From: Eledone cirrhosa
Lineage: Eukaryota
Direction of reading: 5' to 3'
Length of the DNA: 64,000 nt
Assembly: GCA_964016885.1 (NCBI GenBank)
Contig: OZ024765.1
Span: forward strand, 3,162,001-3,226,000
The translations under genes and the position numbers were made by a program. The notes beneath the pieces are model-generated. The model made no database searches. It was not told where the DNA came from and worked only from the letters and a program-made list of their open reading frames with translations. Positions within the stretch are counted from its first letter, which is position 1. Each line of letters opens with the position of its first letter. Below, piece after piece: positions 14,821-64,000 of this stretch.

Positions 14821-14862
14821 AAAAACACACACGAAAAAACTTTACACGATTTCCACTGAAAC

Positions 14863-15830: not shown

Positions 15831-15834
15831 GGGA

Positions 15835-18759: not shown

Positions 18760-19518
18760 GCTCATTCCATTGCACAGATGGTTCTATAGAAATAGTGGAC
18801 AGCTTCCGTTACCTGGGTGACAAAATCAGCAGTGGGGAAGGGTGCTCTGAGAGTACAGTAGCTAGAGTCAGAACGGGATGGAAAAAGTTCAGAGAGCTTA
18901 TACCACTATTAGCCGCTAAAGGGTTCTCCCTAAAAATGAAAGGCAGGCTGTATGATGCCTGCATACGAACAGCTATGTTGCATGGCAGTGAGACCTGGGC
19001 ATTGTGTGCAGAGGATATACGCAGACTAGAGAGAAACGAAGCTTGCATGCTCCGCTGGATGTGTAATAGTAATATACGTGAACGGCAAAGCATTAACGAA
19101 CTAAGGGAGATATTAGGAATAAGAGGGATCAGATGCTGTTTACTCGAGAGAAGACTACGTTGGTACGGTCACGTGATGCGCATGAAAGACGACAGCTGTA
19201 TAACAAAGTGCAGGGCAATAAAGATAGACGGTAGCCACGGAGTAGGAAGACCCAGAAAAACCTGGGACGACCTGATAAATTCCGACCTCACACGCTTACA
19301 CCTCTCCAAGACAATGTCACTGGACCGAGAACTTTGGCGGTACTCAGTAATAGAGAAGACCCGCCTTACCTAAATACAAAGTAAAACCTACTGAAGTCAG
19401 TAGGTATCTCTAACAAAATACACCCCCGTTCCACCACCACCACCCCATCCAATGTAAAGTTATGTTGGTGCCACAACATCCAGGCGGAAACAAATGAAAT
19501 CGTGTAGGCGTCACGACA
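18760..19518 (+). mobile_element. 5'-truncated RTE-like LINE (open frame 18795-19373) with 3' UTR
   Basis: VDSFRYLGD..., LYDACIRTAMLHGSETW, RRLRWYGHVMR, GRPRKTW motifs; 3' UTR homologous to 2436-2752. Confidence 0.93.
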
Positions 19519-19548
19519 AATATTAATTTTCAATGCATTTTTGTAACC

Positions 19549-19621
19549 GTCCCTGTGGCCTAATGGTAAGTACTAGAGACGGTGGAGATCCTGATTTAGG
19601 GTTCGATTTCCGTTAGGTTTT
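19549..19621 (+). ncRNA. tRNA-like Pol III module P0 (outside the first unit; near-identical to P1)
   Basis: A box TGGCCTAATGG 19556-19566, B box GGTTCGATTTC 19600-19610, TTTT at 19618; no cloverleaf. Expression unknown. Confidence 0.55.
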
Positions 19622-19691
19622 ATACTAATAACTGCGTATTTGCTGCTTTTAATATTTATAAAGTTACTTTTTTATTTTTGTTTTATACTAT

Positions 19692-19780
19692 AAAAAAATA
19701 TAATACGACACACTGCCAGTGATTGAACCCCGGACCTGGACCTCCACCGGCTCTTATACTTACCACTAGGCTAAAGGGAC
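19692..19780 (-). ncRNA. tRNA-like Pol III module M2 (one per unit)
   Basis: Minus strand GTCCCTTTAGCCTAGTGGTAAG...CCGGGGTTCAATCACTGG; A box 19773-19763, B box 19729-19719, T6-7 terminator, TATAAATA at -35 to -28. Confidence 0.55.
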
Positions 19781-19830
19781 GGTTACAGAAACTTACTTAA
19801 AAATTGATATTTATAAACCTACTTTTTCAT

Positions 19831-20005
19831 TACTAGAAAAAACCGGAAGTGGAGAAAATTGAAAAACATCTTCTTTTTCTTCCTCTGATTTTTTTTTATC
19901 CAAAATTTGGATTTAAGTCAGAGACGAGTTATCGTTCGTGGCAAAAATCAGAGGAAGAAAAAGAAGAAGTTTTTCAATTTTCTCCACTTCCGGTTTTTTC
20001 TAGTA
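19831..20005. repeat. 175-bp palindrome (63-bp arms, 1 mismatch, 49-nt loop), one per unit
   Basis: TACTAGAAAAAACCGGAAGTGG...GATTTTT and AAAAATC...CCACTTCCGGTTTTTTCTAGTA; further copies start at 24396, 28951, 33502, 38062, 42627, 47201, 51767, 56331, 60897. Confidence 0.97.
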
Positions 20006-20045
20006 TAGGTAAGTAAATATTAATTTTCAAAAAATGTTTGTAACC

Positions 20046-20118
20046 GTCCCTGTGGCCTAATGGTAAGCACTAGAGACGGTGGAGATCCTGATTTAGGGTT
20101 CGATTTCCGTTAGCTTTT
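20046..20118 (+). ncRNA. tRNA-like Pol III module P1 (one per unit)
   Basis: A box TGGCCTAATGG 20053-20063, B box GGTTCGATTTC 20097-20107, TTTT 20115-20118. Confidence 0.55.
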
Positions 20119-21974
20119 ATACTAATAACTGCGTATTTGTTTCTTTTATTAAGTAAGATTTGAACTAATAATGCTGTACTTTGTAGTAATGTCCCATATT
20201 ATATTCAACATATTTTAATTAGAATTTTTTTTTTTTATAAAAGAAAGAACAAAAAACCTTATTGAAATTAAGAAATGAATTTTATTCAGTAAAGTTGTTT
20301 TTATTTTGTTTTCACTTCATTAACTGCTGAATACGTCTTTTGTTTTTGTTTTTGATTCTTTCTAACCATTGTTTACTGTGAATGGTGACTGAACGAACCT
20401 GGATTATTACCAAGTTTCACTGGATGATTGTATTATTTTGTTGTCAGTGGACATCTGGACATCTATCTAAATACCTGGAATAAACACAAGGTGTGTGTTT
20501 TACGTAACATTTCATTTTAATGCCTGATGTTCCTGTATTTCACATTTAAAATGTAACCAAAAATAAACAAGACAGGGACGCTACATCAAAATAAACCACA
20601 CAGACGAGGTACGAATAATCTAAAATTAATTTTAACAAACTATAAACGATGTTTAAAGAGAGACGAACATTAAAATAGGATTTCAAACAAACACGTAAAC
20701 ACAAAGACAATTACAGCCGCCATAATCTAATATCTGAAGATCAACATTTTTCACGATAGAAATAAAACTAAATATGTAAAGTTTAGTGGCCCCTGATTTA
20801 CTTGCTTTTAATTTCATTTTGATAATCTGTATTCTGTAGACATATATTTATGATTTTAATGATGAAATTTCCTCTTGTCTTTAAAAGATTATTACTTATA
20901 AAAATTATAATAGTCACCTCCTCCTCTCGATTAATATGTAGCTTACCCACAGGGGTTCCTCAATTGGGCGGTTTCAACTGTTGGGTGCGCGATGAGCAGC
21001 TGAACAGAAAATTGAGGGCCATTGGAAACTTTGGTGGCCGATATAGAATTTTGAGATTTAAGAAGGTATGCTACCCGAAAACCTATTCAAGGAATATATG
21101 CAAAGAACCTGAATAAATATCAGGAAGCTAATTGGGAAAATTAAACCAGGAACAAACATTTACGAAACATATTTGGTATACTTTGGAATATTTACTATAC
21201 AGGTGGCTGCTGGAACATTTTTTCATGTGAATGTGGGAAATGACGCCAAAATATTTGGCAACCCTTGGCTTACACCTTACTAAATGTTCTGGAGACAAGC
21301 CTCTTCGCTATATATCATAGTTCTTCAATCCTTCCTCTTCCACAGTTGGTGAAGTATTTCGATTTGATATGACGATCGCAGAGTTAGATTTAGGACGTGG
21401 TGGCGTTCATGGGTTTCTTAGTGTTGTTACTAGAAAGGGTCGACTCTGTCTTTCACACTTCAGGTTTTTTCATGAATTAAATATCCATTTTCTTTCTGAT
21501 CGGTCTAACAATGATTTCAACCTACAATGACTCCGTCTGTAATAATGTTCTCTTATTTGAAATATGCCATACCTAACTCCCGTGTCTGTGTGTGTGAAAA
21601 ATATTCCAACTTAGAGCGACGTGCCCGTAAATTGTTTAGCCTGATTCCTATATATAGATAATGTGTAATATTTGAACCTTCATGGAGGGTCTTTGCCGTA
21701 ATTTCCCGTAACTCCGACTAGAAGTCATTATGTAGTTTTTTCGTCCGTTAAAAATAATGATTAAAACAATTCTATATCCACAGTTATATACACCTCATCA
21801 CATATTATATTATTTCCACCAATAACTACATTATATCCTTAAATATGACACCAAGACATATAATTTGTAAATAAAAGATAAAATATTAAAACCTCAATTT
21901 TTAAATAATTTTACCCCACCTTTGTGTTCTCAGTGTTTAGATTAACCCATAATTTTATGATTTTGGAGCATATA

Positions 21975-22062
21975 ACTTATAGTACCAGTCATGTACTGGT
22001 ATCAATTTAACGGATTGGTTCCTCCCCGCAAATTACTTGACTTTTGCCTAAGTAAGACATAC
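21975..22062 (+). mobile_element. decayed SINE 3' half (one per unit)
   Basis: agtaccagtcatgtactgg...aaattacttgacttttgcctaagtaagac resembles the SINE tail aagtaccagt...aattgctggccttgtgcctaaagtagaaac. Confidence 0.65.
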
Positions 22063-22439
22063 TCACAGAATGTATCGATGTATATGTATGAATGTTTATA
22101 TATATTAGTATATTTCATGTTTACAATAATAATAGACAAACAATTTAATGATAATATGAAATGAAATTATTATTATTTATTAATAATATTTTTATTGTTT
22201 TCACTGCATTAACTTCTGAGTGTGACTTTGTTTTTCTTACTATTTTCTACTGTAAATGGCGGCTTAATTGGATTATTACTAAGGTTTACTGGATTGTGGT
22301 GTTTCTTTATTGTTTTATATTTCAATCAGTGGACATCAGGATAGCTTTCTATATACCTGGGATAAATGTAAACAGTACTGACTTTCATCTGCAGTTCAAT
22401 GGTGATGTCTTCTTATATTTTCATTTACTTCTGCAATAC

Positions 22440-23170
22440 TGTATATTGTAGTCTTTTCATTATTTTAAATATTTCTATCATGTCACTCGTTTGATATATC
22501 TCCCCGAAAGATATAGTTATTCAGAGCTTTACATTGGAATAGTGTACTACTATTTAAATATTAGTCCTTTAAATATATATTTCTATCATGTCCCCCCCCC
22601 CCCCCCTCTTAGATTTATCTCCTCTAAATTTGCAATCCCTAAAGTTTAACATCTTTCTTTAGAAGACAGATTTCTTAATAATTCTGGTGTTTTCTGTTTT
22701 GTTCTTTTCTGGATTCCTTCAATAGCTTCTCCGTATTTTCTGAAGTCGTCTGACCATGCCCCCAAAACAATATTCTAGGTCGTATCACACATATCATTCA
22801 ACTAGTGTTTTAGACCTCTCGACATTTAGCTAGGCAAAGGAATGTTTTATTATTCCTATCATCTGAATTCCTTTTTTTTCTTCAACATGTTTAGCCATCT
22901 TTAAAATCATATTCATACATATTCACAATTCCTCGTGGAGGGGTATAAGAGACATGTATAAATATAGCTGCATATTACTACAAAATAACTTGAACCATAT
23001 CGCGAAACATTTTGTAAAGTATCTCTGTAATTATTCTCATTTCGATTTTCTGTAGAATGTATTGACGTTTAAGATAGAGACAATTGCCCTTCTTCTAATA
23101 ATCTCTTTGTCCATTCCATGTTTAGTCTCACAAAATATTGTTAATGCAAGATTTTGCTCTAATGTAATAA
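22440..23170 (-). mobile_element. old CR1 LINE ORF2 relic (one per unit)
   Basis: Minus strand, with stops and frameshifts: MIGIIKHSFA*L...LEYC..AWS..FRKYGEAIEGIQKR....PELLRNLSSKER..TLGIANLEE..LRG DMIEI, matching the CR1 pattern MLGIIKRSF...LEYC..AWSP...IE.VQRR...LSYEERL..L.L..LE.RRLRGDMIE. Confidence 0.8.
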
Positions 23171-23346
23171 ATGTTACTTTTAAAAGACCGAAGTTCTCAA
23201 TTTTCTTCTTTCTCTTGTATATTGATATCTAAAGGATGACAAATGTATGAATTATGTGATAGGGAGGAGAAAAAAGCCACGACCTTCTTCTCTCGTTACA
23301 GAAGGCTAACTGACAACGTCTTTCGCAGGAGTGACTAGTACTACTG

Positions 23347-23357
23347 CCTTTTATATA
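23347..23357 (-). promoter_or_regulatory. candidate TATA box (one per unit)
   Basis: TATATAAAAGG on the minus strand in a GC-richer patch, preceded by two TTGTCACG motifs and GATAAG; Inr-like TCACT and TCAGTT lie downstream at non-ideal spacing. Confidence 0.35.
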
Positions 23358-23954
23358 CCGTGACAACTGGAAAGACGTGACAAATAAGGATACACTCTGC
23401 TCTCCTTATCAACATTGTCCGAGTCTGAGGACCTTTCCTCCCTGGTTAAGGAGTGAGATAAAATATTAGGGATCAATCTCTAGCAATAATTTCATTAAAT
23501 CATATTTAACCAGAGACTGTTATGTCGTGGTTGTTGCTATATTTTATAGTCGTGGTTTCAATGTTTAACAGGGGTTGTAGAATTAGCTTTATCTAATTAT
23601 TATCAAACAAAACAGATTTATATATTGTCGCCGTTGTACGTTAAAATCACATATATATTTATATACACACCAAGGATGGAGGGACGACGGAATTGAAAAC
23701 CATTATTGCTGAGTACATCACGGCAAGATCTAATACACACACACTCTCCCGTATATATTTAATAATCAGCTATGACCATGAAGAAGGTCCCTGTAGATCA
23801 TCTGGTTGTAGGATCTAATGAACCCGAAAGAAAGTGAAAATATATTTTATGAAAGCCCCAGAAGAATAAATGTAAACATTGACCCGATTATAGTAGAAAT
23901 AACAATGAGAAAGCCATGAACGCCAGCACATCTATTTTGCTTGGAAATTAAAAG

Positions 23955-24075
23955 TAGGTTTATAAATATTAATTTTTTCTTATGTTCTTGTATCTGTTTG
24001 GTAGGTGTTAGAGACTATGTAGACACTGATGTGGTGTTCAATCTCAGTCCGAATCTGTACTATATATTTTTAAAT
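23955..24075 (+). other. degenerate tRNA-like module P2 (one per unit)
   Basis: gtaggtttataaatattaattt...tggtaggtgttagagac...gttcaatctcagtc aligns with M1/M2 and their upstream flank; A box mostly deleted. Confidence 0.55.
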
Positions 24076-24097
24076 TAAAATTTTTCTCTAGTAAAGT

Positions 24098-24192
24098 AAA
24101 AAATGAAATTATTATCTATAGACTTTGACTGAAATCGAAACCCAGAGCAGGTTCTCCACCGTCTCTAATACCTACCATTAGGCCACGGAGAC
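24098..24192 (-). ncRNA. tRNA-like Pol III module M1 (one per unit)
   Basis: Minus strand GTCTCCGTGGCCTAATGGTAGG...GGGTTTCGATTTC; A box 24185-24175, variant B box 24141-24131, T6 terminator, TATAAATA at -34 to -27. Confidence 0.5.
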
Positions 24193-27100
24193 AGATATGA
24201 AAACAGTGTGTAAATTAATATTTATAAAGTTACTTTTTTATTTTTGTTTTATACTATAAAAAATATAATACGACACACTGCCAGTGATTGAACCCCGGAC
24301 CTGGACCTCCACCGGCTCTTATACTTACCACTAGGCTAAAGGGACGGTTACAGAAACTTATTTAAAAATTGATATTTATAAACCTACTTTTTCATTACTA
24401 GAAAAAACCGGAAGTGGAGAAAATTGAAAAACATCTTCTTTTTCTTCCTCTGATTTTTTTTTATCCAAAATTTGGATTTAAGTCAGAGACGAGTTATCGT
24501 TCGTGGCAAAAATCAGAGGAAGAAAAAGAAGAAGTTTTTCAATTTTCTCCACTTCCGGTTTTTTCTAGTATAGGTAAGTAAATATTAATTTTCAAAAAAT
24601 TTTTGTAACCGTCCCTGTGGCCTAATGGTAAGCACTAGAGACGGTGGAGATCCTGATTTAGGGTTCGATTTCCGTTAGCTTTTATACTAATAACTGCGTA
24701 TTTGTTTCTTTTATTAAGTAAGATTTGAACTAATAATGCTGTACTTTGTAGTAATGTCCCATATTATATTCAACATATTTTAATTAGAATTTTTTTTTTT
24801 TATAAAAGAAAGAACAAAAAACCTTATTGAAATTAAGAAATGAATTTTATTCAGTAAAGTTGTTTTTATTTTGTTTTCACTTCATTAACTGCTGAATACG
24901 TCTTTTGTTTTTGTTTTTGATTCTTTCTAACCATTGTTTACTGTGAATGGTGACTGCAACGAACCTGGATTATTACCAAGTTTCACTGGATGATTGTATT
25001 ATTTTGTTGTCAGTGGACATCTGGACATCTATCTAAATACCTGGAATAAACACAAGGTGTGTGTTTTACGTAACATTTCATTTTAATGTCTGATGTTCCT
25101 GTATTTCACATTTAAAATGTAACCAAAAATAAACAAGACAGGGACGCTACATCAAAATAAACCACACAGACGAGGTACGAATAATCTAAAATTAATTTTA
25201 ACAAACTATAAACGATGTTTAAAGAGAGACGAACATTAAAATAGGATTTCAAACAAACACGTAAACACAAAGACAATTACAGCCGCCATAATCTAATATC
25301 TGAAGATCAACATTTTTCACGATAGAAATAAAACTAAATATGTAAAGTTTAGTGGCCCCTGATTTACTTGCTTTTAATTTCATTTTGATAATCTGTATTC
25401 TGTAGACATATATTTATGATTTTAATGATGAAATTTCCTCTTGTCTTTAAAAGATTATTACTTATAAAAATTATAATAGTCACCTCCTCCTCTCGATTAA
25501 TATGTAGCTTACCCACAGGGGTTCCTCAATTGGGCGGTTTCAACTGTTGGGTGCGCGATGAGCAGCTGAACAGAAAATTGAGGGCCATTGGAAACTTTGG
25601 TGGCCGATATAGAATTTTGAGATTTAAGAAGGTATGCTACCCGAAAACCTATTCAAGGAATATATGCAAAGAACCTGAATAAATATCAGGAAGCTAATTG
25701 GGAAAATTAAACCAGGAACAAACATTTACGAAACATATTTGGTATACTTTGGAATATTTACTATACAGGTGGCTGCTGGAACATTTTTTCATGTGAATGT
25801 GGGAAATGACGCCAAAATATTTGGCAACCCTTGGCTTACACCTTACTAAATGTTCTGGAGACAAGCCTCTTCGCTATATATCATAGTTCTTCAATCCTTC
25901 CTCTTCCACAGTTGGTGAAGTATTTCGATTTGATATGACGATCGCAGAGTTAGATTTAGGACGTGGTGGCGTTCATGGGTTTCTTAGTGTTGTTACTAGA
26001 AAGGGTCGACTCTGTCTTTCACACTTCAGGTTTTTTCATGAATTAAATATCCATTTTCTTTCTGATCGGTCTAACAATGATTTCAACCTACAATGACTCC
26101 GTCTGTAATAATGTTCTCTTATTTGAAATATGCCATACCTAACTCCCGTGTCTGTGTGTGTGAAAAATATTCCAACTTAGAGCGACGTGCCCGTAAATTG
26201 TTTAGCCTGATTCCTATATATAGATAATGTGTAATATTTGAACCTTCATGGAGGGTCTTTGCCGTAATTTCCCGTAACTCCGACTAGAAGTCATTATGTA
26301 GTTTTTTCGTCCGTTAAAAATAATGATTAAAACAATTCTATATCCACAGTTATATACACCTCATCACATATTATATTATTTCCACCAATAACTACATTAT
26401 ATCCTTAAATATGACACCAAGACATATAATTTGTAAATAAAAGATAAAATATTAAAACCTCAATTTTTAAATAATTTTACCCCACCTTTGTGTTCTCAGT
26501 GTTTAGATTAACCCATAATTTTATGATTTTGGAGCATATAACTTATAGTACCAGTCATGTACTGGTATCAATTTAACGGATTGGTTCCTCCCCGCAAATT
26601 ACTTGACTTTTGCCTAAGTAAGACATACTCACAGAATGTATCGATGTATATGTATGAATGTTTATATATATTAGTATATTTCATGTTTACAATAATAATA
26701 GACAAACAATTTAATGATAATATGAAATGAAATTATTATTATTTATTAATAATATTTTTATTGTTTTCACTGCATTAACTTCTGAGTGTGACTTTGTTTT
26801 TCTTACTATTTTCTACTGTAAATGGCGGCTTAATTGGATTATTACTAAGGTTTACTGGATTGTGGTGTTTCTTTATTGTTTTATATTTCAATCAGTGGAC
26901 ATCAGGATAGCTTTCTATATACCTGGGATAAATGTAAACAGTACTGACTTTCATCTGCAGTTCAATGGTGATGTCTTCTTATATTTTCATTTACTTCTGC
27001 AATACTGTATATTGTAGTCTTTTCATTATTTTAAATATTTCTATCATGTCACTCGTTTGATATATCTCCCCGAAAGATATAGTTATTCAGAGCTTTACAT

Positions 27101-30100
27101 TGGAATAGTGTACTACTATTTAAATATTAGTCCTTTAAATATATATTTCAATCATGTCCCCCCCCCCCCCCTCTTAGATTTATCTCCTCTAAATTTGCAA
27201 TCCCTAAAGTTTAACATCTTTCTTTAGAAGACATAATTCTGGTGTTTTCTGTTTTGTTCTTTTCTGGATTCCTTCAATAGCTTCTCCGTATTTTCTGAAG
27301 TCGTCTGACCATGCCCCCAAAACAATATTCTAGGTCGTATCACACATATCATTCAACTAGTGTTTTAGACCTCTCGACATTTAGCTAGGCAAAGGAATGT
27401 TTTATTATTCCTATCATCTGAATTCCTTTTTTTTCTTCAACATGTTTAGCCATCTTTAAAATCATATTCATACATATTCACAATTCCTCGTGGAGGGGTA
27501 TAAGAGACATGTATAAATATAGCTGCATATTACTACAAAATAACTTGAACCATATCGCGAAACATTTTGTAAAGTATCTCTGTAATTATTCTCATTTCGA
27601 TTTTCTGTAGAATGTATTGACGTTTAAGATAGAGACAATTGCCCTTCTTCTAATAATCTCTTTGTCCATTCCATGTTTAGTCTCACAAAATATTGTTAAT
27701 GCAAGATTTTGCTCTAATGTAATAAATGTTACTTTTAAAAGACCGAAGTTCTCAATTTTCTTCTTTCTCTTGTATATTGATATCTAAAGGATGACAAATG
27801 TATGAATTATGTGATAGGGAGGAAAAAAAAGCCACGACCTTCTTCTCTCGTTACAGAAGGCTAACTGACAACGTCTTTCGCAGGAGTGACTAGTACTACT
27901 GCCTTTTATATACCGTGACAACTGGAAAGACGTGACAAATAAGGATACACTCTGCTCTCCTTATCAACATTGTCCGAGTCTGAGGACCTTTCCTCCCTGG
28001 TTAAGGAGTGAGATAAAATATTAGGGATCAATCTCTAGCAATAATTTCATTAAATCATATTTAACCAGAGACTGTTATGTCGTGGTTGTTGCTATATTTT
28101 ATAGTCGTGGTTTCAATGTTTAACAGGGGTTGTAGAATTAGCTTTATCTAATTATTATCAAACAAAACAGATTTATATATTGTCGCCGTTGTACGTTAAA
28201 ATCACATATATATTTATATACACACCAAGGATGGAGGGACGACGGAATTGAAAACCATTATTGCTGAGTACATCACGGCAAGATCTAATACACACACACT
28301 CTCCCGTATATATTTAATAATCAGCTATGACCATGAAGAAGGTCCCTGTAGATCATCTGGTTGTAGGATCTAATGAACCCGAAAGAAAGTGAAAATATAT
28401 TTTATGAAAGCCCCAGAAGAATAAATGTAAACATTGACCCGATTATAGTAGAAATAACAATGAGAAAGCCATGAACGCCAGCACATCTATTTTGCTTGGA
28501 AATTAAAAGTAGGTTTATAAATATTAATTTTTTCTTATGTTCTTGTATCTGTTTGGTAGGTGTTAGAGACTATGTAGACACTGATGTGGTGTTCAATCTC
28601 AGTCCGAATCTGTACTATATATTTTTAAATTAAAATTTTTCTCTAGTAAAGTAAAAAATGAAATTATTATCTATAGACTTTGACTGAAATCGAAACCCAG
28701 AGCAGGTTCTCCACCGTCTCTAATACCTACCATTAGGCCACGGAGACAGATATGAAAACAGTGTGTAAATTAATATTTATAAAGTTACTTTTTTATTTTT
28801 GTTTTATACTATAAAAAATATAATACGACACACTGCCAGTGATTGAACCCCGGACCTGGACCTCCACCGGCTCTTATACTTACCACTAGGCTAAAGGGAC
28901 GGTTACAGAAACTTACTTAAAAATTGATATTTATAAACCTACTTTTTCATTACTAGAAAAAACCGGAAGTGGAGAAAATTGAAAAACATCTTCTTTTTCT
29001 TCCTCTGATTTTTTTTTATCCAAAATTTGGATTTAAGTCAGAGACGAGTTATCGTTCGTGGCAAAAATCAGAGGAAGAAAAAGAAGAAGTTTTTCAATTT
29101 TCTCCACTTCCGGTTTTTTCTAGTATAGGTAAGTAAATATTAATTTTCAAAAAATTTTTGTAACCGTCCCTGTGGCCTAATGGTAAGCACTAGAGACGGT
29201 GGAGATCCTGATTTAGGGTTCGATTTCCGTTAGCTTTTATACTAATAACTGCGTATTTGTTTCTTTTATTAAGTAAGATTTGAACTAATAATGCTGTACT
29301 TTGTAGTAATGTCCCATATTATATTCAACATATTTTAATTAGAATTTTTTTTTTTTATAAAAGAAAGAACAAAAAACCTTATTGAAATTAAGAAATGAAT
29401 TTTATTCAGTAAAGTTGTTTTTATTTTGTTTTCACTTCATTAACTGCTGAATACGTCTTTTGTTTTTGTTTTTGATTCTTTCTAACCATTGTTTACTGTG
29501 AATGGTGACTGCAACGAACCTGGATTATTACCAAGTTTCACTGGATGATTGTATTATTTTGTTGTCAGTGGACATCTGGACATCTATCTAAATACCTGGA
29601 ATAAACACAAGGTGTGTGTTTTACGTAACATTTCATTTTAATGTCTGATGTTCCTGTATTTCACATTTAAAATGTAACCAAAAATAAACAAGACAGGGAC
29701 GCTACATCAAAATAAACCACACAGACGAGGTACGAATAATCTAAAATTAATTTTAACAAACTATAAACGATGTTTAAAGAGAGACGAACATTAAAATAGG
29801 ATTTCAAACAAACACGTAAACACAAAGACAATTACAGCCGCCATAATCTAATATCTGAAGATCAACATTTTTCACGATAGAAATAAAACTAAATATGTAA
29901 AGTTTAGTGGCCCCTGATTTACTTGCTTTTAATTTCATTTTGATAATCTGTATTCTGTAGACATATATTTATGATTTTAATGATGAAATTTCCTCTTGTC
30001 TTTAAAAGATTATTACTTATAAAAATTATAATAGTCACCTCCTCCTCTCGATTAATATGTAGCTTACCCACAGGGGTTCCTCAATTGGGCGGTTTCAACT

Positions 30101-51100: not shown

Positions 51101-54100
51101 CTAATACACACACACTCTCCCGTATATATTTAATAATCAGCTATGACCATGAAGAAGGTCCCTGTAGATCATCTGGTTGTAGGATCTAATGAACCCGAAA
51201 GAAAGTGAAAATATATTTTATGAAAGCCCCAGAAGAATAAATGTAAACATTGACCCGATTATAGTAGAAATAACAATGAGAAAGCCATGAACGCCAGCAC
51301 ATCTATTTTGCTTGGAAATTAAAAGTAGGTTTATAAATATTAATTTTTTCTTATGTTCTTGTATCTGTTTGGTAGGTGTTAGAGACTATGTAGACACTGA
51401 TGTGGTGTTCAATCTCAGTCCGAATCTGTACTATATATTTTTAAATTAAAATTTTTCTCTAGTAAAGTAAAAAATGAAATTATTATCTATAGACTTTGAC
51501 TGAAATCGAAACCCAGAGCAGGTTCTCTACCGTCTCTAATACCTACCATTAGGCCACGGAGACAGATATGAAAACAGTGTGTAAATTAATATTTATAAAG
51601 TTACTTTTTTATTTTTGTTTTATACTATAAAAAATATAATACGACACACTGCCAGTGATTGAACCCCGGACCTGGACCTCCACCGGCTCTTATACTTACC
51701 ACTAGGCTAAAGGGACGGTTACAGAAACTTACTTAAAAATTGATATTTATAAACCTACTTTTTCATTACTAGAAAAAACCGGAAGTGGAGAAAATTGAAA
51801 AACATCTTCTTTTTCTTCCTCTGATTTTTTTTTATCCAAAATTTGGATTTAAGTCAGAGACGAGTTATCGTTCGTGGCAAAAATCAGAGGAAGAAAAAGA
51901 AGAAGTTTTTCAATATTCTCCACTTCCGGTTTTTTCTAGTATAGGTAAGTAAATATTAATTTTCAAAAAATTTTTGTAACCGTCCCTGTGGCCTAATGGT
52001 AAGCACTAGAGACGGTGGAGATCCTGATTTAGGGTTCGATTTCCGTTAGCTTTTATACTAATAACTGCGTATTTGTTTCTTTTATTAAGTAAGATTTGAA
52101 CTAATAATGCTGTACTTTGTAGTAATGTCCCATATTATATTCAACATATTTTAATTAGAATTTTTTTTTTTTATAAAAGAAAGAACAAAAAACCTTATTG
52201 AAATTAAGAAATGAATTTTATTCAGTAAAGTTGTTTTTATTTTGTTTTCACTTCATTAACTGCTGAATACGTCTTTTGTTTTTGTTTTTGATTCTTTCTA
52301 ACCATTGTTTACTGTGAATGGTGACTGAACGAACCTGGATTATTACCAAGTTTCACTGGATGATTGTATTATTTTGTTGTCAGTGGACATCTGGACATCT
52401 ATCTAAATACCTGGAATAAACACAAGGTGTGTGTCTTACGTAACATTTCATTTTAATGTCTGATGTTCCTGTATTTCACATTTAAAATGTAACCAAAAAT
52501 AAACAAGACAGGGACGCTACATCAAAATAAACCACACAGACGAGGTACGAATAATCTAAAATTAATTTTAACAAACTATAAACGATGTTTAAAGAGAGAC
52601 GAACATTAAAATAGGATTTCAAACAAACACGTAAACACAAAGACAATTACAGCCGCCATAATCTAATATCTGAAGATCAACATTTTTCACGATAGAAATA
52701 AAACTAAATAAGTAAAGTTTAGTGGCCCCTGATTTACTTGTTTTAATTTCATTTTGATAATCTGTATTCTGTAGACATATATTTATGATTTTAATGATGA
52801 AATTTCCTCTTGTCTTTAAAAGATTATTACTTATAAAAATTATAATAGTCACCTCCTCCTCTCGATTAATATATAGCATCATTCGAGGTAGCTTACCCAC
52901 AGGGGTTCCTCAACTGGGCGGTTTCAACTGTTGGGTGGGCGATGAGCAGCTGAACAGAAAATTGAGGGCCATTGGAAACTTTGGTGGCCGATATAGAATT
53001 TTGAGATTTAAGAAGGTATGCTACCCGAAAACCTATTCAAGGAATATATGCAAAGAACCTGAATAAATATCAGGAAGCTAATTGGGAAAATTAAACCAGG
53101 AACAAACATTTACGAAACATATTTGGTATACTTTGGAATATTTACTATACAGGTGGCTGCTGGAACATTTTTTCATGTGAATGTGGGAAATGACGCCAAA
53201 ATATTTGGCAACCCTTGGCTCACACCTTACTAAATGTTCTGGAGACAAGCCTCTTAGCTATATATCATAGTTCTTCAATCCTTCATCTTCCACAGTTGGT
53301 GAAGTATTTCGATTTGATATGACGATCGCAGAGTTAGATTTAGGACGTGGTGGCGTTCATGGGTTTCTTAGTGTTGTTACTAGAAAGGGTCGACTCTGTC
53401 TTTCACACTTCAGGTTTTTTCATGAATTAAATATCCATTTTCTTTCTGATCGGTCTAACAATGATTTGAACCTACAATGACTCCGTCTGTAATAATGTTC
53501 TCTTATTTGAAATATGCCATACCTAACTCCCGTGTCTGTGTGAAAAATATTCCAACTTAGAGCGACGTGCCCGTAAATTGTTTAGCCCGATTCCTATATA
53601 TAGATAATGTGTAATATTTGAACCTTCATGGAGGGTCTTTGCCGTAATTTCCCGTAACTCCGACTAGAAGTCATTATGTAGTTTTTTCGTCCGTTAAAAA
53701 TAATGATTAAAACAATTCTATATCCACCTCTTCATCACATATTATATTATTTCCACCAATAACTACACTATATCCTTAAATATGACACCAAGACATATAA
53801 TTTGTAAATAAAAGATAAAATATTAAAACCTCAATTTTTAAATAATTTTACCCCCACCTTTGTGTTCTCAGTGTTTAGATTAACCCATAATTTTATGATT
53901 TTGGAGCATATAACTTATAGTACCAGTCATGTACTGGGATCAATTTAACGGATTGGTTCCTCCCCGCAAATTACTTGACTTTTGCCTAAGTAAGACATAC
54001 TCACAGAATGTATCGATGTATATGTATGAATGTATATATATATTAGTATATTTTATGTTTACAATAAAAATAGACAAACAATTTAATGATAATATGAAAT

Positions 54101-57100
54101 GAAATTATTATTATTTATTAATAATATTTTTATTGTTTTCACTGCATTAACTTCTGAGTGTGACTTTGTTTTTCTTACTATTTTCTACTGTAAATGGCGG
54201 CTTAATTGGATTATTACTAAGGTTTACTGGATTGTGGTGTTTCTTTATTGTTTTATATTTCAATCAGTGGACATCAGGATAGCTTTCTATATACCTGGGA
54301 TAAATGTAAACAGTACTGACTTTCATCTGCAGTTCAATGGTGATGTCTTCTTATATTTTCATTTACTTCTGCAATACTGTATATTGTAGTCTTTTCATTA
54401 TTTTAAATATTTCTATCATGTCACTCGTTTGATATATCTCCCCGAAAGATATAGTTATTCAGAGCTTTACATTGGAATAGTGTACTACTATTTAAATATT
54501 AGTCCTTTAAATATATATTTCTATCATGTCCCCCCCCCCCCTCTTAGATTTATCTCCTCTAAATTTGCAATCCCTAAAGTTTAACATCTTTCTTTAGAAG
54601 ACAGATTTCTTAATAATTCTGGTGTTTTCTGTTTTGTTCTTTTCTGGATTCCTTCAATAGCTTCTCCGTATTTTCTGAAGTCGTCTGACCATGCCCCCAA
54701 AACAATATTCTAGGTCGTATCACACATATCATTCAACTAGTGTTTTAGACCTCTCGACATTTAGCTAGGCAAAGGAATGTTTTATTATTCCTATCATCTG
54801 AATTCCTTTTTTTTCTTCAACATGTTTAGCCATCTTTAAAATCATATTCATACATATTCACAATTCCTCGTGGAGGGGTATAAGAGACATGTATAAATAT
54901 AGCTGCATATTACTACAAAATAACTTGAACCATATCGCGAAACATTTTGTAAAGTATCTCTGTAATTATTCTCATTTCGATTTTCTGTAGAATGTATTGA
55001 CGTTTAAGATAGAGACAATTGCCCTTCTTCTAATAATCTCTTTGTCCATTCCATGTTTAGTCTCACAAAATATTGTTAATGCAAGATTTTGCTCTAATGT
55101 AATAAATGTTACTTTTAAAAGACCGAAGTTCTCAATTTTCTTCTTTCTCTTGTATATTGATATCTAAAGGATGACAAATGTATGAATTATGTGATAGGGA
55201 GGAAAAAAAAGCCACGACCTTCTTCTCTCGTTACAGAAGGCTAACTGACAACGTCTTTCGCAGGAGTGACTAGTACTACTGCCTTTTATATACCGTGACA
55301 ACTGGAAAGACGTGACAAATAAGGATACACTCTGCTCTCCTTATCAACATTGTCCGAGTCTGAGGACCTTTCCTCCCTGGTTAAGGAGTGAGATAAAATA
55401 TTAGGGATCAATCTCTAGCAATAATTTCATTAAATCATATTTAACCAGAGACTGTTATGTCGTGGTTGTTGCTATATTTTATAGTCGTGGTTTCAATGTT
55501 TAACAGGGGTTGTAGAATTAGCTTTATCTAATTATTATCAAACAAAACAGATTTATATATTGTCGCCGTTGTACGTTAAAATCACATATATATTTATATA
55601 CACACCAAGGATGGAGGGACGACGGAATTGAAAACCATTATTGCTGAGTACATCACGGCAAGATCTAATACACACACACTCTCCCGTATATATTTAATAA
55701 TCAGCTATGACCATGAAGAAGGTCCCTGTAGATCATCTGGTTGTAGGATCTAATGAACCCGAAAGAAAGTGAAAATATATTTTATGAAAGCCCCAGAAGA
55801 ATAAATGTAAACATTGACCCGATTATAGTAGAAATAACAATGAGAAAGCCATGAACGCCAGCACATCTATTTTGCTTGGAAATTAAAAGTAGGTTTATAA
55901 ATATTAATTTTTTCTTATGTTCTTGTATCTGTTTGGTAGGTGTTAGAGACTATGTAGACACTGATGTGGTGTTCAATCTCAGTCCGAATCTGTACTATAT
56001 ATTTTTAAATTAAAATTTTTCTCTAGTAAAGTAAAAAATGAAATTATTATCTATAGACTTTGACTGAAATCGAAACCCAGAGCAGGTTCTCCACCGTTTC
56101 TAATACCTACCATTAGGCCACGGAGACAGATATGAAAACAGTGTGTAAATTAATATTTATAAAGTTACTTTTTTATTTTTGTTTTATACTATAAAAAATA
56201 TAATACGACACACTGCCAGTGATTGAACCCCGGACCTGGACCTCCACCGGCTCTTATACTTACCACTAGGCTAAAGGGACGATTACAGAAACTTACTTAA
56301 AAATTGATATTTATAAACCTACTTTTTCATTACTAGAAAAAACCGGAAGTGGAGAAAATTGAAAAACATCTTCTTTTTCTTCCTCTGATTTTTTTTTATC
56401 CAAAATTTGGATTTAAGTCAGAGACGAGTTATCGTTCGTGGCAAAAATCAGAGGAAGAAAAAGAAGAAGTTTTTCAATTTTCTCCACTTCCGGTTTTTTC
56501 TAGTATAGGTAAGTAAATATTAATTTTCAAAAAATTTTTGTAACCGTCCCTGTGGCCTAATGGTAAGCACTAGAGACGGTGGAGATCCTGATTTAGGGTT
56601 CGATTTCCGTTAGCTTTTATACTAATAACTGCGTATTTGTTTCTTTTATTAAGTAAGATTTGAACTAATAATGCTGTACTTTGTAGTAATGTCCCATATT
56701 ATATTCAACATATTTTAATTAGAATTTTTTTTTTTTATAAAAGAAAGAACAAAAAACCTTATTGAAATTAAGAAATGAATTTTATTCAGTAAAGTTGTTT
56801 TTATTTTGTTTTCACTTCATTAACTGCTGAATACGTCTTTTGTTTTTGTTTTTGATTCTTTCTAACCATTGTTTACTGTGAATGGTGACTGCAACTAACC
56901 TGGATTATTACCAAGTTTCACTGGATGATTGTATTATTTTGTTGTCAGTGGACATCTGGACATCTATCTAAATACCTGGAATAAACACAAGGTGTGTGTT
57001 TTACGTAACATTTCATTTTAATGTCTGATGTTCCTGTATTTCACATTTAAAATGTAACCAAAAATAAACAAGACAGGGACGCTACATCAAAATAAACCAC

Positions 57101-60100
57101 ACAGACGAGGTACGAATAATCTAAAATTAATTTTAACAAACTATAAACGATGTTTAAAGAGAGACGAACATTAAAATAGGATTTCAAACAAACACGTAAA
57201 CACAAAGACAATTACAGCCGCCATAATCTAATATCTGAAGATCAACATTTTTCACGATAGAAATAAAACTAAATATGTAAAGTTTAGTGGCCCCTGATTT
57301 ACTTGCTTTTAATTTCATTTTGATAATCTGTATTCTGTAGACATATATTTATGATTTTAATGATGAAATTTCCTCTTGTCTTTAAAAGATTATTACTTAT
57401 AAAAATTATAATAGTCACCTCCTCCTCTCGATTAATATGTAGCTTACCCACAGGGGTTCCTCAATTGGGCGGTTTCAACTGTTGGGTGCGCGATGAGCAG
57501 CTGAACAGAAAATTGAGGGCCATTGGAAACTTTGGTGGCCGATATAGAATTTTGAGATTTAAGAAGGTATGCTACCCGAAAACCTATTCAAGGAATATAT
57601 GCAAAGAACCTGAATAAATATCAGGAAGCTAATTGGGAAAATTAAACCAGGAACAAACATTTACGAAACATATTTGGTATACTTTGGAATATTTACTATA
57701 CAGGTGGCTGCTGGAACATTTTTTCATGTGAATGTGGGAAATGACGCCAAAATATTTGGCAACCCTTGGCTTACACCTTACTAAATGTTCTGGAGACAAG
57801 CCTCTTCGCTATATATCATAGTTCTTCAATCCTTCCTCTTCCACAGTTGGTGAAGTATTTCGATTTGATATGACGATCGCAGAGTTAGATTTAGGACGTG
57901 GTGGCGTTCATGGGTTTCTTAGTGTTGTTACTAGAAAGGGTCGACTCTGTCTTTCACACTTCAGGTTTTTTCATGAATTAAATATCCATTTTCTTTCTGA
58001 TCGGTCTAACAATGATTTCAACCTACAATGACTCCGTCTGTAATAATGTTCTCTTATTTGAAATATGCCATACCTAACTCCCGTGTCTGTGTGTGTGAAA
58101 AATATTCCAACTTAGAGCGACGTGCCCGTAAATTGTTTAGCCTGATTCCTATATATAGATAATGTGTAATATTTGAACCTTCATGGAGGGTCTTTGCCGT
58201 AATTTCCCGTAACTCCGACTAGAAGTCATTATGTAGTTTTTTCGTCCGTTAAAAATAATGATTAAAACAATTCTATATCCACAGTTATATACACCTCATC
58301 ACATATTATATTATTTCCACCAATAACTACATTATATCCTTAAATATGACACCAAGACATATAATTTGTAAATAAAAGATAAAATATTAAAACCTCAATT
58401 TTTAAATAATTTTACCCCACCTTTGTGTTCTCAGTGTTTAGATTAACCCATAATTTTATGATTTTGGAGCATATAACTTATAGTACCAGTCATGTACTGG
58501 TATCAATTTAACGGATTGGTTCCTCCCCGCAAATTACTTGACTTTTGCCTAAGTAAGACATACTCACAGAATGTATCGATGTATATGTATGAATGTTTAT
58601 ATATATTAGTATATTTCATGTTTACAATAATAATAGACAAACAATTTAATGATAATATGAAATGAAATTATTATTATTTATTAATAATATTTTTATTGTT
58701 TTCACTGCATTAACTTCTGAGTGTGACTTTGTTTTTCTTACTATTTTCTACTGTAAATGGCGGCTTAATTGGATTATTACTAAGGTTTACTGGATTGTGG
58801 TGTTTCTTTATTGTTTTATATTTCAATCAGTGGACATCAGGATAGCTTTCTATATACCTGGGATAAATGTAAACAGTACTGACTTTCATCTGCAGTTCAA
58901 TGGTGATGTCTTCTTATATTTTCATTTACTTCTGCAATACTGTATATTGTAGTCTTTTCATTATTTTAAATATTTCTATCATGTCACTCGTTTGATATAT
59001 CTCCCCGAAAGATATAGTTATTCAGAGCTTTACATTGGAATAGTGTACTACTATTTAAATATTAGTCCTTTAAATATATATTTCTATCATGTCCCGTCCC
59101 CCCCCCCTCTTAGATTTATCTCCTCTAAATTTGCAATCCCTAAAGTTTAACATCTTTCTTTAGAAGACAGATTTCTTAATAATTCTGGTGTTTTCTGTTT
59201 TGTTCTTTTCTGGATTCCTTCAATAGCTTCTCCGTATTTTCTGAAGTCGTCTGACCATGCCCCCAAAACAATATTCTAGGTCGTATCACACATATCATTC
59301 AACTAGTGTTTTAGACCTCTCGACATTTAGCTAGGCAAAGGAATGTTTTATTATTCCTATCATCTGAATTCCTTTTTTTTCTTCAACATGTTTAGCCATC
59401 TTTAAAATCATATTCATACATATTCACAATTCCTCGTGGAGGGGTATAAGAGACATGTATAAATATAGCTGCATATTACTACAAAATAACTTGAACCATA
59501 TCGCGAAACATTTTGTAAAGTATCTCTGTAATTATTCTCATTTCGATTTTCTGTAGAATGTATTGACGTTTAAGATAGAGACAATTGCCCTTCTTCTAAT
59601 AATCTCTTTGTCCATTCCATGTTTAGTCTCACAAAATATTGTTAATGCAAGATTTTGCTCTAATGTAATAAATGTTACTTTTAAAAGACCGAAGTTCTCA
59701 ATTTTCTTCTTTCTCTTGTATATTGATATCTAAAGGATGACAAATGTATGAATTATGTGATAGGGAGGAAAAAAAAGCCACGACCTTCTTCTCTCGTTAC
59801 AGAAGGCTAACTGACAACGTCTTTCGCAGGAGTGACTAGTACTACTGCCTTTTATATACCGTGACAACTGGAAAGACGTGACAAATAAGGATACACTCTG
59901 CTCTCCTTATCAACATTGTCCGAGTCTGAGGACCTTTCCTCCCTGGTTAAGGAGTGAGATAAAATATTAGGGATCAATCTCTAGCAATAATTTCATTAAA
60001 TCATATTTAACCAGAGACTGTTATGTCGTGGTTGTTGCTATATTTTATAGTCGTGGTTTCAATGTTTAACAGGGGTTGTAGAATTAGCTTTATCTAATTA

Positions 60101-63100
60101 TTATCAAACAAAACAGATTTATATATTGTCGCCGTTGTACGTTAAAATCACATATATATTTATATACACACCAAGGATGGAGGGACGACGGAATTGAAAA
60201 CCATTATTGCTGAGTACATCACGGCAAGATCTAATACACACACACTCTCCCGTATATATTTAATAATCAGCTATGACCATGAAGAAGGTCCCTGTAGATC
60301 ATCTGGTTGTAGGATCTAATGAACCCGAAAGAAAGTGAAAATATATTTTATGAAAGCCCCAGAAGAATAAATGTAAACATTGACCCGATTATAGTAGAAA
60401 TAACAATGAGAAAGCCATGAACGCCAGCACATCTATTTTGCTTGGAAATTAAAAGTAGGTTTATAAATATTAATTTTTTCTTATGTTCTTGTATCTGTTT
60501 GGTAGGTGTTAGAGACTATGTAGACACTGATGTGGTGTTCAATCTCAGTCCGAATCTGTACTATATATTTTTAAATTAAAATTTTTCTCTAGTAAAGTAA
60601 AAAATGAAATTATTATCTATAGACTTTGACTGAAATCGAAACCCAGAGCAGGTTCTCTACCGTCTCTAATACCTACCATTAGGCCACGGAGACAGATATG
60701 AAAACAGTGTGTAAATTAATATTTATAAAGTTACTTTTTTATTTTTGTTTTATACTATAAAAAATATAATACGACACACTGCCAGTGATTGAACCCCGGA
60801 CCTGGACCTCCACCGGCTCTTATACTTACCACTAGGCTAAAGGGACGGTTACAGAAACTTACTTAAAAATTGATATTTATAAACCTACTTTTTCATTACT
60901 AGAAAAAACCGGAAGTGGAGAAAATTGAAAAACATCTTCTTTTTCTTCCTCTGATTTTTTTTTATCCAAAATTTGGATTTAAGTCAGAGACGAGTTATCG
61001 TTCGTGGCAAAAATCAGAGGAAGAAAAAGAAGAAGTTTTTCAATATTCTCCACTTCCGGTTTTTTCTAGTATAGGTAAGTAAATATTAATTTTCAAAAAA
61101 TTTTTGTAACCGTCCCTGTGGCCTAATGGTAAGCACTAGAGACGGTGGAGATCCTGATTTAGGGTTCGATTTCCGTTAGCTTTTATACTAATAACTGCGT
61201 ATTTGTTTCTTTTATTAAGTAAGATTTGAACTAATAATGCTGTACTTTGTAGTAATGTCCCATATTATATTCAACATATTTTAATTAGAATTTTTTTTTT
61301 TTATAAAAGAAAGAACAAAAAACCTTATTGAAATTAAGAAATGAATTTTATTCAGTAAAGTTGTTTTTATTTTGTTTTCACTTCATTAACTGCTGAATAC
61401 GTCTTTTGTTTTTGTTTTTGATTCTTTCTAACCATTGTTTACTGTGAATGGTGACTGAACGAACCTGGATTATTACCAAGTTTCACTGGATGATTGTATT
61501 ATTTTGTTGTCAGTGGACATCTGGACATCTATCTAAATACCTGGAATAAACACAAGGTGTGTGTCTTACGTAACATTTCATTTTAATGTCTGATGTTCCT
61601 GTATTTCACATTTAAAATGTAACCAAAAATAAACAAGACAGGGACGCTACATCAAAATAAACCACACAGACGAGGTACGAATAATCTAAAATTAATTTTA
61701 ACAAACTATAAACGATGTTTAAAGAGAGACGAACATTAAAATAGGATTTCAAACAAACACGTAAACACAAAGACAATTACAGCCGCCATAATCTAATATC
61801 TGAAGATCAACATTTTTCACGATAGAAATAAAACTAAATAAGTAAAGTTTAGTGGCCCCTGATTTACTTGTTTTAATTTCATTTTGATAATCTGTATTCT
61901 GTAGACATATATTTATGATTTTAATGATGAAATTTCCTCTTGTCTTTAAAAGATTATTACTTATAAAAATTATAATAGTCACCTCCTCCTCTCGATTAAT
62001 ATATAGCATCATTCGAGGTAGCTTACCCACAGGGGTTCCTCAACTGGGCGGTTTCAACTGTTGGGTGGGCGATGAGCAGCTGAACAGAAAATTGAGGGCC
62101 ATTGGAAACTTTGGTGGCCGATATAGAATTTTGAGATTTAAGAAGGTATGCTACCCGAAAACCTATTCAAGGAATATATGCAAAGAACCTGAATAAATAT
62201 CAGGAAGCTAATTGGGAAAATTAAACCAGGAACAAACATTTACGAAACATATTTGGTATACTTTGGAATATTTACTATACAGGTGGCTGCTGGAACATTT
62301 TTTCATGTGAATGTGGGAAATGACGCCAAAATATTTGGCAACCCTTGGCTCACACCTTACTAAATGTTCTGGAGACAAGCCTCTTAGCTATATATCATAG
62401 TTCTTCAATCCTTCATCTTCCACAGTTGGTGAAGTATTTCGATTTGATATGACGATCGCAGAGTTAGATTTAGGACGTGGTGGCGTTCATGGGTTTCTTA
62501 GTGTTGTTACTAGAAAGGGTCGACTCTGTCTTTCACACTTCAGGTTTTTTCATGAATTAAATATCCATTTTCTTTCTGATCGGTCTAACAATGATTTGAA
62601 CCTACAATGACTCCGTCTGTAATAATGTTCTCTTATTTGAAATATGCCATACCTAACTCCCGTGTCTGTGTGAAAAATATTCCAACTTAGAGCGACGTGC
62701 CCGTAAATTGTTTAGCCCGATTCCTATATATAGATAATGTGTAATATTTGAACCTTCATGGAGGGTCTTTGCCGTAATTTCCCGTAACTCCGACTAGAAG
62801 TCATTATGTAGTTTTTTCGTCCGTTAAAAATAATGATTAAAACAATTCTATATCCACCTCTTCATCACATATTATATTATTTCCACCAATAACTACACTA
62901 TATCCTTAAATATGACACCAAGACATATAATTTGTAAATAAAAGATAAAATATTAAAACCTCAATTTTTAAATAATTTTACCCCCACCTTTGTGTTCTCA
63001 GTGTTTAGATTAACCCATAATTTTATGATTTTGGAGCATATAACTTATAGTACCAGTCATGTACTGGGATCAATTTAACGGATTGGTTCCTCCCCGCAAA

Positions 63101-64000
63101 TTACTTGACTTTTGCCTAAGTAAGACATACTCACAGAATGTATCGATGTATATGTATGAATGTATATATATATTAGTATATTTTATGTTTACAATAAAAA
63201 TAGACAAACAATTTAATGATAATATGAAATGAAATTATTATTATTTATTAATAATATTTTTATTGTTTTCACTGCATTAACTTCTGAGTGTGACTTTGTT
63301 TTTCTTACTATTTTCTACTGTAAATGGCGGCTTAATTGGATTATTACTAAGGTTTACTGGATTGTGGTGTTTCTTTATTGTTTTATATTTCAATCAGTGG
63401 ACATCAGGATAGCTTTCTATATACCTGGGATAAATGTAAACAGTACTGACTTTCATCTGCAGTTCAATGGTGATGTCTTCTTATATTTTCATTTACTTCT
63501 GCAATACTGTATATTGTAGTCTTTTCATTATTTTAAATATTTCTATCATGTCACTCGTTTGATATATCTCCCCGAAAGATATAGTTATTCAGAGCTTTAC
63601 ATTGGAATAGTGTACTACTATTTAAATATTAGTCCTTTAAATATATATTTCTATCATGTCCCCCCCCCCCCTCTTAGATTTATCTCCTCTAAATTTGCAA
63701 TCCCTAAAGTTTAACATCTTTCTTTAGAAGACAGATTTCTTAATAATTCTGGTGTTTTCTGTTTTGTTCTTTTCTGGATTCCTTCAATAGCTTCTCCGTA
63801 TTTTCTGAAGTCGTCTGACCATGCCCCCAAAACAATATTCTAGGTCGTATCACACATATCATTCAACTAGTGTTTTAGACCTCTCGACATTTAGCTAGGC
63901 AAAGGAATGTTTTATTATTCCTATCATCTGAATTCCTTTTTTTTCTTCAACATGTTTAGCCATCTTTAAAATCATATTCATACATATTCACAATTCCTCG

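Follow-up and report, generated by a model that had tools for sequence, protein, structure and literature searches.

The array and its unit

The window analyzed here is a stretch of 64,000 nucleotides from Eledone cirrhosa, positions 3,162,001 to 3,226,000 of contig OZ024765.1 in assembly GCA_964016885.1 (the contig is called C26 from here on, and the window is C26:3162001-3226000). It holds what is probably the end of a RhoGAP-domain gene, a flank with repeat and retrotransposon pieces and, from position 19649 onward, a tandem head-to-tail array of units of 4.55–4.57 kb that is the subject of this work. By self-BLAST of the window, the units begin at 19649, 24215, 28770, 33321, 37881, 42446, 47020, 51586, 56150, and 60716, with gapped identities of 98.4–99.8% to unit 1, which serves as the reference for all unit coordinates below. 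Comparison with the neighboring sequence carries the array 13.1 kb beyond the window, through three further unit starts, to C26:3239106, where it breaks off in unit 13, at position 2697 of the unit. The whole array (C26:3181649-3239106) measures 57,458 bases without an N and consists of 12 full units of 4549–4574 bases and a 2709-base piece, 12.6 units in all; the 84 kb around it are also N-free. The tandem array is real. An earlier note on this DNA had described near-identical head-to-tail units, at least 9.7 of them over 44 kb, and while the likeness stands, that count is right for the window and low for the array. In PMC12692304 a macrosatellite is a satellite with a monomer of more than 500 bases and possibly a composite structure, and a tandem monomer of several kb, well over that length, is what we find here.

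Units of the array differ by 0.04–0.7% in substitutions, and their alignment has 144 variable columns as against 55 substitution columns. A poly-C tract of about 15 bases (window 22593-22607) is found in each unit and, together with poly-T runs, makes up much of the variation in unit length. The G+C level is 31–33% across the array and 21–42% in the left flank, and Tandem Repeats Finder, run with periods of up to 500, reports nothing across the range of the array. The features of the window and of unit 1 are collected in Table 1.

Table 1. Positions of the array, of the pieces of unit 1, and of neighboring features in the window.
Feature	Position	Strand	Evidence
Macrosatellite array, part in the window (9.72 units)	19649..64000	+	Self-BLAST, then extension past the window
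Unit 1, 4566 bases, 32% G+C, gene-free	19649..24214	+	Rfam, ARAGORN, open reading frame, and Pfam scans
tRNA-like element, resembling the head of a short interspersed nuclear element (SINE); outer left arm of palindrome	19722..19802	-	Inverted repeat I3, 75% complementary to 20024-20104
Inner hairpin, arms 19831-19893 and 19943-20005 (63 nt, 98% complementary), 49-nt loop	19831..20005	.	Inverted repeat I2
tRNA-like element, outer right arm of palindrome (unit 367-497)	20015..20145	+	Inverted repeats, sequence reading
Old internal dispersed-repeat piece, copy 1 (about 185 bases)	20300..20484	+	Direct repeats D1-D3, 78–79% to 22189-22366
Same old repeat piece, copy 2	22189..22366	+	Direct repeats D1-D3
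(AC)n microsatellite, length varies among arrays, census marker	23727..23760	+	
Third tRNA-like element, unit end beside the head-to-tail junction	24117..24214	-	Inverted repeat I1, 73% complementary to 20024-20121
Probable terminal coding exon of RhoGAP-domain gene (open frame; exon start likely near 3002)	2949..3170	+	PF00620
Reverse-transcriptase fragment of a retrotransposon, left flank, outside the unit	15987..16856	+	PF00078 RVT_1, 109 bits
Solitary tRNA-like copy, left flank, ends 6 bases before the array	19518..19642	+	95% identity to unit 367-491

The unit has no recognizable gene. ARAGORN finds no tRNA gene in the window and Rfam gives no match at gathering score over the same range; at E≤1 Rfam reports matches on the hairpin only (19846-19990), all of them of sub-threshold microRNA (miRNA) type or leader type and the best of them to plant miRNA families, with scores of 25–61 bits against gathering scores of 55–171. 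The longest stop-to-stop frames of the unit are 96 and 98 amino acids, no Pfam cut-off is reached by any of the 83 open stretches of at least 30 amino acids in one unit and the junction next to it, and the 96-residue frame has zero relatives among the proteins of 52–168 residues in a large protein collection. With no Rfam match at gathering score, no tRNA, and no Pfam domain in the unit, the array is not a tandem cluster of ribosomal RNA (rRNA), 5S, small nuclear RNA (snRNA), histone, or tRNA genes. A scan for bacterial-type promoters and terminators, which is irrelevant to an animal, yields 26 against 23.2 expected, the chance level. The earlier note was correct in recognizing no intact open reading frame and no rRNA, 5S, snRNA, or histone gene, and the Rfam search for a known tandem gene in the unit, which that note had named as a way to overturn its reading, returns none at gathering score. 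Its description of the interior as old and decayed transposable element sequence holds in part: the tRNA-like pieces, the hairpin, and the two copies of about 185 bases that are about 79% alike agree with it, but Pfam finds no protein remnant of such an element (no transposase, Rep/helicase, or reverse transcriptase) in the 83 open stretches.

A palindrome lies near the start of the unit, where the segment 19700-20125 folds as a single long DNA hairpin of –130 kcal/mol (z of –21 against shuffles), with both tRNA-like heads oriented away from the hairpin. ARAGORN calls none of the three tRNA-like pieces a tRNA and finds no cloverleaf in them; on reading, they contain motifs that may correspond to the A and B boxes of RNA polymerase III (Pol III) promoters. 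A genome search with the tRNA-like element gives 923 first-look candidates, about three per unit, and the best 40 of the 923, which were scored, all lie within units. The possibility that the hairpin is a common miniature inverted-repeat transposable element, hinted at by its ends of the form TA/CTAG...CTAG/TA, was rejected on the same kind of evidence, all 40 scored genome matches being inside units. In two of the short-read runs used below (X5 and X6), the depth bin 22112-22295, which falls on copy 2 of the old repeat piece, stands at 50–100 times the rest of the unit.

A family of arrays concentrated on one small contig

The earlier note had also suggested searching the unit against its own genome, and the search reveals a multi-locus family that lies mostly on C26. 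A 1-kb probe from the unit has copies of 98–100% identity at several places on C26 and at one on C20. A 32-mer marker of the unit has 231 genome matches with at most one mismatch (its reversed control has 0), the first 100 of which are distributed over C26 (69), C20 (29), and C18 (2). A marker in the hairpin loop has 254 matches, at least 20 of them from unrelated loci, leaving about 234 family units. Units were placed by a census with three patterns at the (AC)n site that complement one another, all three fully listed with fewer than 100 matches apiece: the first gives 57 (51 on C26 and 6 on C20), the second 54, all on C26, and the third 71 (49 on C26, 15 on C20, 2 on C18, 2 on C22, and 3 on the unplaced scaffold C1777). 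Altogether 154 of the 182 placed units (85%) are on C26, with 21 on C20, 2 each on C18 and C22, and 3 on C1777, and C26 accounts for 23.80 Mb of the 2,996-Mb assembly, or 0.79%. The family, among the matches listed, has the large majority of its units on one chromosome, as expected of a chromosome-specific dispersed satellite.

By assembly count the family comprises roughly 230–250 units in about 18 arrays. The 13 on C26 occur in both orientations and lie at 3.18 (the window array), 4.03, 5.74, 7.04, 7.76, 9.20, 9.81, 10.92, 14.15, 16.92, 18.41-18.55, 18.86-18.93, and 20.49-20.56 Mb. Off C26, arrays are found at C20:27.28, C20:28.40, C18:29.02, and C22:10.76 (in Mb) and on scaffold C1777, and there is a decayed relic at C20:29.46. 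The host contigs are all small (43.9, 37.3, 31.8, and 23.8 Mb). Sizes vary widely across the assembly, and C18 to C26 measure 24–44 Mb. The coordinates of the largest contigs, C1 to C4, reach 256–402 Mb, and among the matches listed no family unit lies on them.

The loop-marker matches that do not belong to the family, on C11 (1), at C22:7.14 Mb (1), and in an array at C22:27.03-27.16 Mb (18), share just 120–160 bases with the unit. The last of these is a different macrosatellite with a 7.11-kb period (C22:27026000-27165999), in which at least 17 copies of the loop marker are on the minus strand and one, at 27.156 Mb, is on the plus strand; what it has in common with the 4.56-kb unit is about 120–160 bases made up of the hairpin loop (98–100%) and one arm (about 97%). 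Solitary copies of the shared hairpin piece occur at C11:31.52 Mb and C22:7.137 Mb.

Proposed exchange within arrays and spread between sites

What lies at the locus is a 57.5-kb array of a gene-free 4.56-kb macrosatellite family that is likely to be neutral or selfish, to evolve by unequal exchange, and to have no function of its own. Mean substitution distances were taken over unit positions 1700-3800 in 58 copies from 10 arrays, and they are 0.27–0.35% within homogeneous arrays (0.35% in the window array), 0.7–1.5% within three mixed arrays, 0.5–2.0% between the C26 and C20 arrays, and about 3% to C18. Units are nearer to one another within a homogeneous array than between arrays (0.5–3%), which is the pattern of concerted evolution. 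In a FastTree tree the units group per array, and so do the C20 arrays with one another. Basal positions are taken by the units at the left edge of the 16.92-Mb array and by the first unit sampled from the 20.5-Mb region, and the window array is closest to the younger units at 16.92 Mb. From left to right, the units of the 16.92-Mb array have 94.5, 95.3, 98.2, 98.7, and 98.4% identity to unit 1.

Within the window array two haplotypes emerge from the 55 substitution columns: units 1 to 5, 7, and 9 carry A and units 8, 10, and 11 carry B, with 20 or more shared sites in addition to private changes. Units 7 and 9 differ by 0.4 substitutions per kb, as do units 8 and 10, which amounts to duplication of a two-unit block, and the neighbors 4 and 5 are likewise 0.4 substitutions per kb apart. 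The most diverged units are 12 and 13 at the right edge (5.5–10 substitutions per kb). Block duplications of one and two units and a diverged right edge are what unequal exchange would be expected to leave behind if units shifted by one and by two. We propose that misaligned units would exchange unequally, between sister chromatids or between homologues, so that an array would grow and stay uniform, and that such exchange would be the engine of array evolution. The unit sequence itself would be selectively neutral or selfish.

Other arrays carry the marks of a longer history. In the C20 arrays a 60-base segment, at unit positions 1574-1634, is replaced. A deletion subtype lacks 3845-3939 (95 bases) and has a tail of 93–95% identity; in the sequence that was fetched it occurs at C26:4.03, 7.04, 9.20, and 10.94 Mb. 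The C18 units have the center of the palindrome inverted, and several arrays are edged by older unit remnants of 77–86% identity. The earlier note had called the array young, and this is true of the window array, a freshly homogenized member of an older, C26-concentrated family, but not of the family, whose roughly 18 arrays are 0.5–3% apart and whose remnants are older still. The same note's first reading, a neutral macrosatellite with recent amplification or homogenization, fits everything that was tested, including the small within-array differences and the block duplications.

How some of the arrays reached their sites can be read from their flanks. The upstream flanks at C26:7.04, 10.92, and 14.15 Mb are collinear over 3.0–3.4 kb or more in all three pairs, and for the pair at 7.04 and 14.15 Mb the collinear stretch is about 8.3 kb. 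The shared flanks differ by 1.5–3.5% in substitutions, about as the units do (1.0–1.5%). Collinear flanks that have diverged like the units indicate segmental duplication, in which these arrays were copied along with the adjoining sequence before they diverged. Downstream, C20:28.4 and C26:4.03 share 2.1 kb at 89%, and this match is, on the face of the sequence, the result of exchange between contigs. Since flank divergence is about that of the units, homogenization between arrays beyond shared descent was considered and found unsupported. We propose that some arrays would have been carried to new sites along C26 inside segmental duplications, together with their flanks, and would have diverged afterward. 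The window array does not show this pattern. Its left flank is unique in the genome except for a 570-base repeat, the best genome relative of its right flank is at 84% or less, and on inspection both junctions are abrupt, with no duplication and no target-site duplication.

The alternatives begin with the assembly itself. An assembler might have inflated one or two real copies into an array, as long near-identical repeats are error-prone in assemblies, the region of the related 16.92-Mb array (C26:16913000-16944999) contains a 200-N gap, and the copy number is counted in the assembly. Nevertheless, we consider this extremely unlikely, because the units differ in a structured way (the two haplotypes with their shared sites and private changes), no N interrupts the 84 kb around the array, and the roughly 18 arrays can be told apart by flank and subtype. 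The read evidence, which consists of contigs of public short-read runs and restriction-site-associated DNA (RAD) reads, points the same way. In run X1, which has the same organism label as the assembly, unit contigs have word depths of 902–1193 and a 164-base contig across the head-to-tail junction (24134-24297) has a depth of 1004; because junction depth is like interior depth, nearly every unit must be followed by another. A contig of run X5, which carries a second organism label, spans the same junction (23735-24257), and pieces 99–100% identical to the unit occur at depths of 2–8 both in X5 and in X6, a run under a third organism label. The second reading offered by the earlier note, that the array is kept for a Pol III-type cassette of tRNA-like elements and hairpin that makes a useful RNA, is not supported by comparison across arrays, and we give it almost no credence. 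In its favor are the three tRNA-like pieces in each unit, the hairpin with its 63-nt arms of 98% complementarity and its z of –21, and the sub-threshold Rfam matches of miRNA type. These matches, however, are all under gathering score and at best to plant families, ARAGORN finds no tRNA, and the tRNA-like heads face away from the hairpin. Moreover, in 56 full units from 9 arrays (the units of C18 and C22, in which the palindrome region is rearranged or old, were omitted), between-array substitution divergence is 1.71% overall and 1.35% in the hairpin, the 50th percentile of 183-base windows, while the three tRNA-like pieces stand at 3.43, 4.35, and 4.40% and so change at two to three times the pace of the remaining sequence. 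In the same window comparison no stretch of the unit is better conserved than the others. Changes in the hairpin arms are uncompensated in 34 of 35 changed units, with arm-to-arm complementarity falling by the same amount, and the hairpin therefore does not behave like a hairpin RNA or miRNA whose stem is kept by selection. An average divergence together with uncompensated arm changes means that there is no sign of selection on the cassette; no constraint is visible on it. CpG bases are variable at 22.8% and other G/C bases at 18.3% (p = 0.15), which is uninformative on methylation.

Two further alternatives concern the way the arrays spread and the chromosome on which they lie. Arrays may have a mobile-element origin, by rolling-circle (Helitron-like) copying or by re-insertion of extrachromosomal circles of units, with the window array as one such insertion. 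The unique flanks and abrupt junctions of the window array, which imply arrival without a duplicated flank, the presence of arrays in both orientations and on four contigs, and the description of Helitron-carried satellite arrays in oysters in PMC12692304 all speak for this idea. We nonetheless regard it as unlikely. Array starts fall at unit positions 1, 4186, 2468, 1974, 549, 3466, 211, and 1616 and array ends at 2697, 2846, 4390, 4562, 4566, 1789, 3784, 3156, and 1294; phases differ across the examined arrays except for the three paralogous ones, and so many different phases mean that there are no transposon-like termini, although re-insertion of circles is compatible with varied phases. 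In addition, transposase, Rep/helicase, and reverse transcriptase are all missing from the Pfam results for the unit, the junctions bear no visible target-site duplication, and several arrays have clearly moved with their flanks. For the window array in particular, seeding by circle re-insertion or by template switch is possible. By analogy with repeats that mark chromosomes, one could also suppose that arrays every 1–3 Mb mark or fold C26 by way of small RNAs or bound proteins. This idea draws on the 154 of 182 placed units that lie on 0.79% of the assembly, on the 13 arrays that the 23.8-Mb C26 carries, in both orientations, from 3.2 to 20.6 Mb, and on the restriction of the other arrays to contigs of at most 44 Mb, with none listed on the contigs of 256–402 Mb. 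It is very unlikely in our view, as the unit has no better-conserved part, the pairing of the hairpin decays, and segmental duplication within the chromosome already accounts for clustering on one contig. More improbable still is the fuller form of the idea, again argued by analogy, in which the family would provide architectural anchors or sources of small RNA that set C26 apart, with a few arrays on three other small contigs.

The proposal of a neutral or selfish macrosatellite evolving by unequal exchange has to contend with several points that weigh against it. Simple models of unequal exchange predict that both edges of an array are diverged, but unit 1 at the left edge is not. As both flanks of the window array are genome-unique and its junctions lack any duplication, the segmental-duplication route does not explain how this array was seeded. 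The roughly 100-fold enrichment on C26 exceeds what neutrality calls for and may point to a role specific to that chromosome; as to the census behind it, the 182 units placed are about 50 fewer than the 231 marker matches, so that a few arrays elsewhere are possible. Finally, run X1 is possibly the assembly's own sample, and the copy number is the one counted in the assembly.

Neighborhood, parallels, and meaning

Upstream of the array, window positions 2949-3167 on the plus strand match the end of PF00620 with 31.2 bits (cut-off 24.5). A ..cag acceptor near 3002 precedes the frame, which ends in a stop codon at 3168-3170 and is probably the last coding exon of its gene. From that stop to the start of the array there are 16.5 kb, with the gene upstream, in agreement with the earlier note, which had given the array's distance downstream of the RhoGAP gene as 16 kb. 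Between the exon and the array lie three AT-rich microsatellite tracts of kb length (3509-4722, 8026-9458, and 13888-14821) and a 60-base minisatellite at 6707-7685 with 16.5 copies and higher-order periods of 118 and 178. At 15359-15831 two arrays of 88-base units abut (3.2 and 2.2 copies), and their consensus units resemble mutual reverse complements, as in a head-to-head mirrored array. Beyond the reverse-transcriptase fragment, positions 18800-19535 are a hyper-abundant repeat, on which RAD reads pile up in huge numbers and whose summed contig depth in run X1 is about 0.8–1.8 million; it is probably the 3' part of a long interspersed nuclear element (LINE) or its SINE partner. Seeding of the array by homology from the solitary tRNA-like copy at its left edge was considered and rejected, as the array resumes at unit position 1 and not at 492. 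On the other side, the repeat of the right flank recurs on C24 at 67–76% identity (for example at 13.82, 13.86, 13.90, and 13.94 Mb, at 7.30-7.49 Mb, and at 7.70-7.76 Mb), and the spacing of about 37–39 kb suggests a very long-period tandem duplication.

Human macrosatellites include DXZ4, D4Z4, RS447, and SST1. Unlike these, which occupy one or two loci, the present family comprises about 18 arrays, of which 13 are spread along C26, and its 4.56-kb unit is AT-rich (32% G+C) and has no open reading frame and no recognizable gene or CpG-island-like part. For repeats that mark or fold a chromosome, the X-linked 1.688 satellite of Drosophila and the mammalian DXZ4 and FIRRE are parallels. The family resembles macrosatellites, which are treated in PMC12692304, in its kb-scale unit, in head-to-tail arrays of roughly 5–30 units, in the very high identity among the units of one array, in a monomer that is a mosaic of repeat-derived pieces, and in units that are nearer within than between arrays. 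That review describes dispersed euchromatic satellite arrays and, in oysters, Helitron-linked ones; with the bivalve arrays the family shares dispersed, non-heterochromatic positions beside transposon remnants, but its arrays have no termini in common, Pfam finds no remnant of a Helitron protein in the unit, its units are at least 10 times longer, and some of its arrays have spread as segmental duplications with 3–8 kb of flank. Chromosome-specific satellites in Drosophila are the subject of PMC4079201. The X-linked 1.688 family there is like the present one in having many modest arrays dispersed along one chromosome and few elsewhere, with local homogenization and turnover. It differs in its unit, which is a few hundred bases long, against 4.56 kb. 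The idea that C26 is the Z chromosome was set aside: nothing was found that links C26 to a sex chromosome, and the word "satellite" is absent from the part of PMC10925132 that was available. Among the top-ranked papers of our full-text literature searches no description of satellite or macrosatellite DNA in cephalopods or octopuses turned up.

The biology proposed here is ordinary for a repeat, but the case is a clean one, in that about 18 assembled arrays let the history of the family be read directly, from local one- and two-unit duplications and diverged edge units to subtypes and spread with flanks. Annotation should mask about 1 Mb of the genome, and about 3% of C26, under a single satellite family and not leave it as unclassified sequence. 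The feature of most specialist interest is the roughly 100-fold concentration on C26. If the idea of a chromosome-marking or folding role were true, C26 would stand out as a chromosome that is sex-linked or under some other special regulation. The unit is a ready marker for the C26 chromosome, for fluorescence in situ hybridization or for copy number, and the concentration of the family on C26 gives a test of preferential sequence exchange among small chromosomes.

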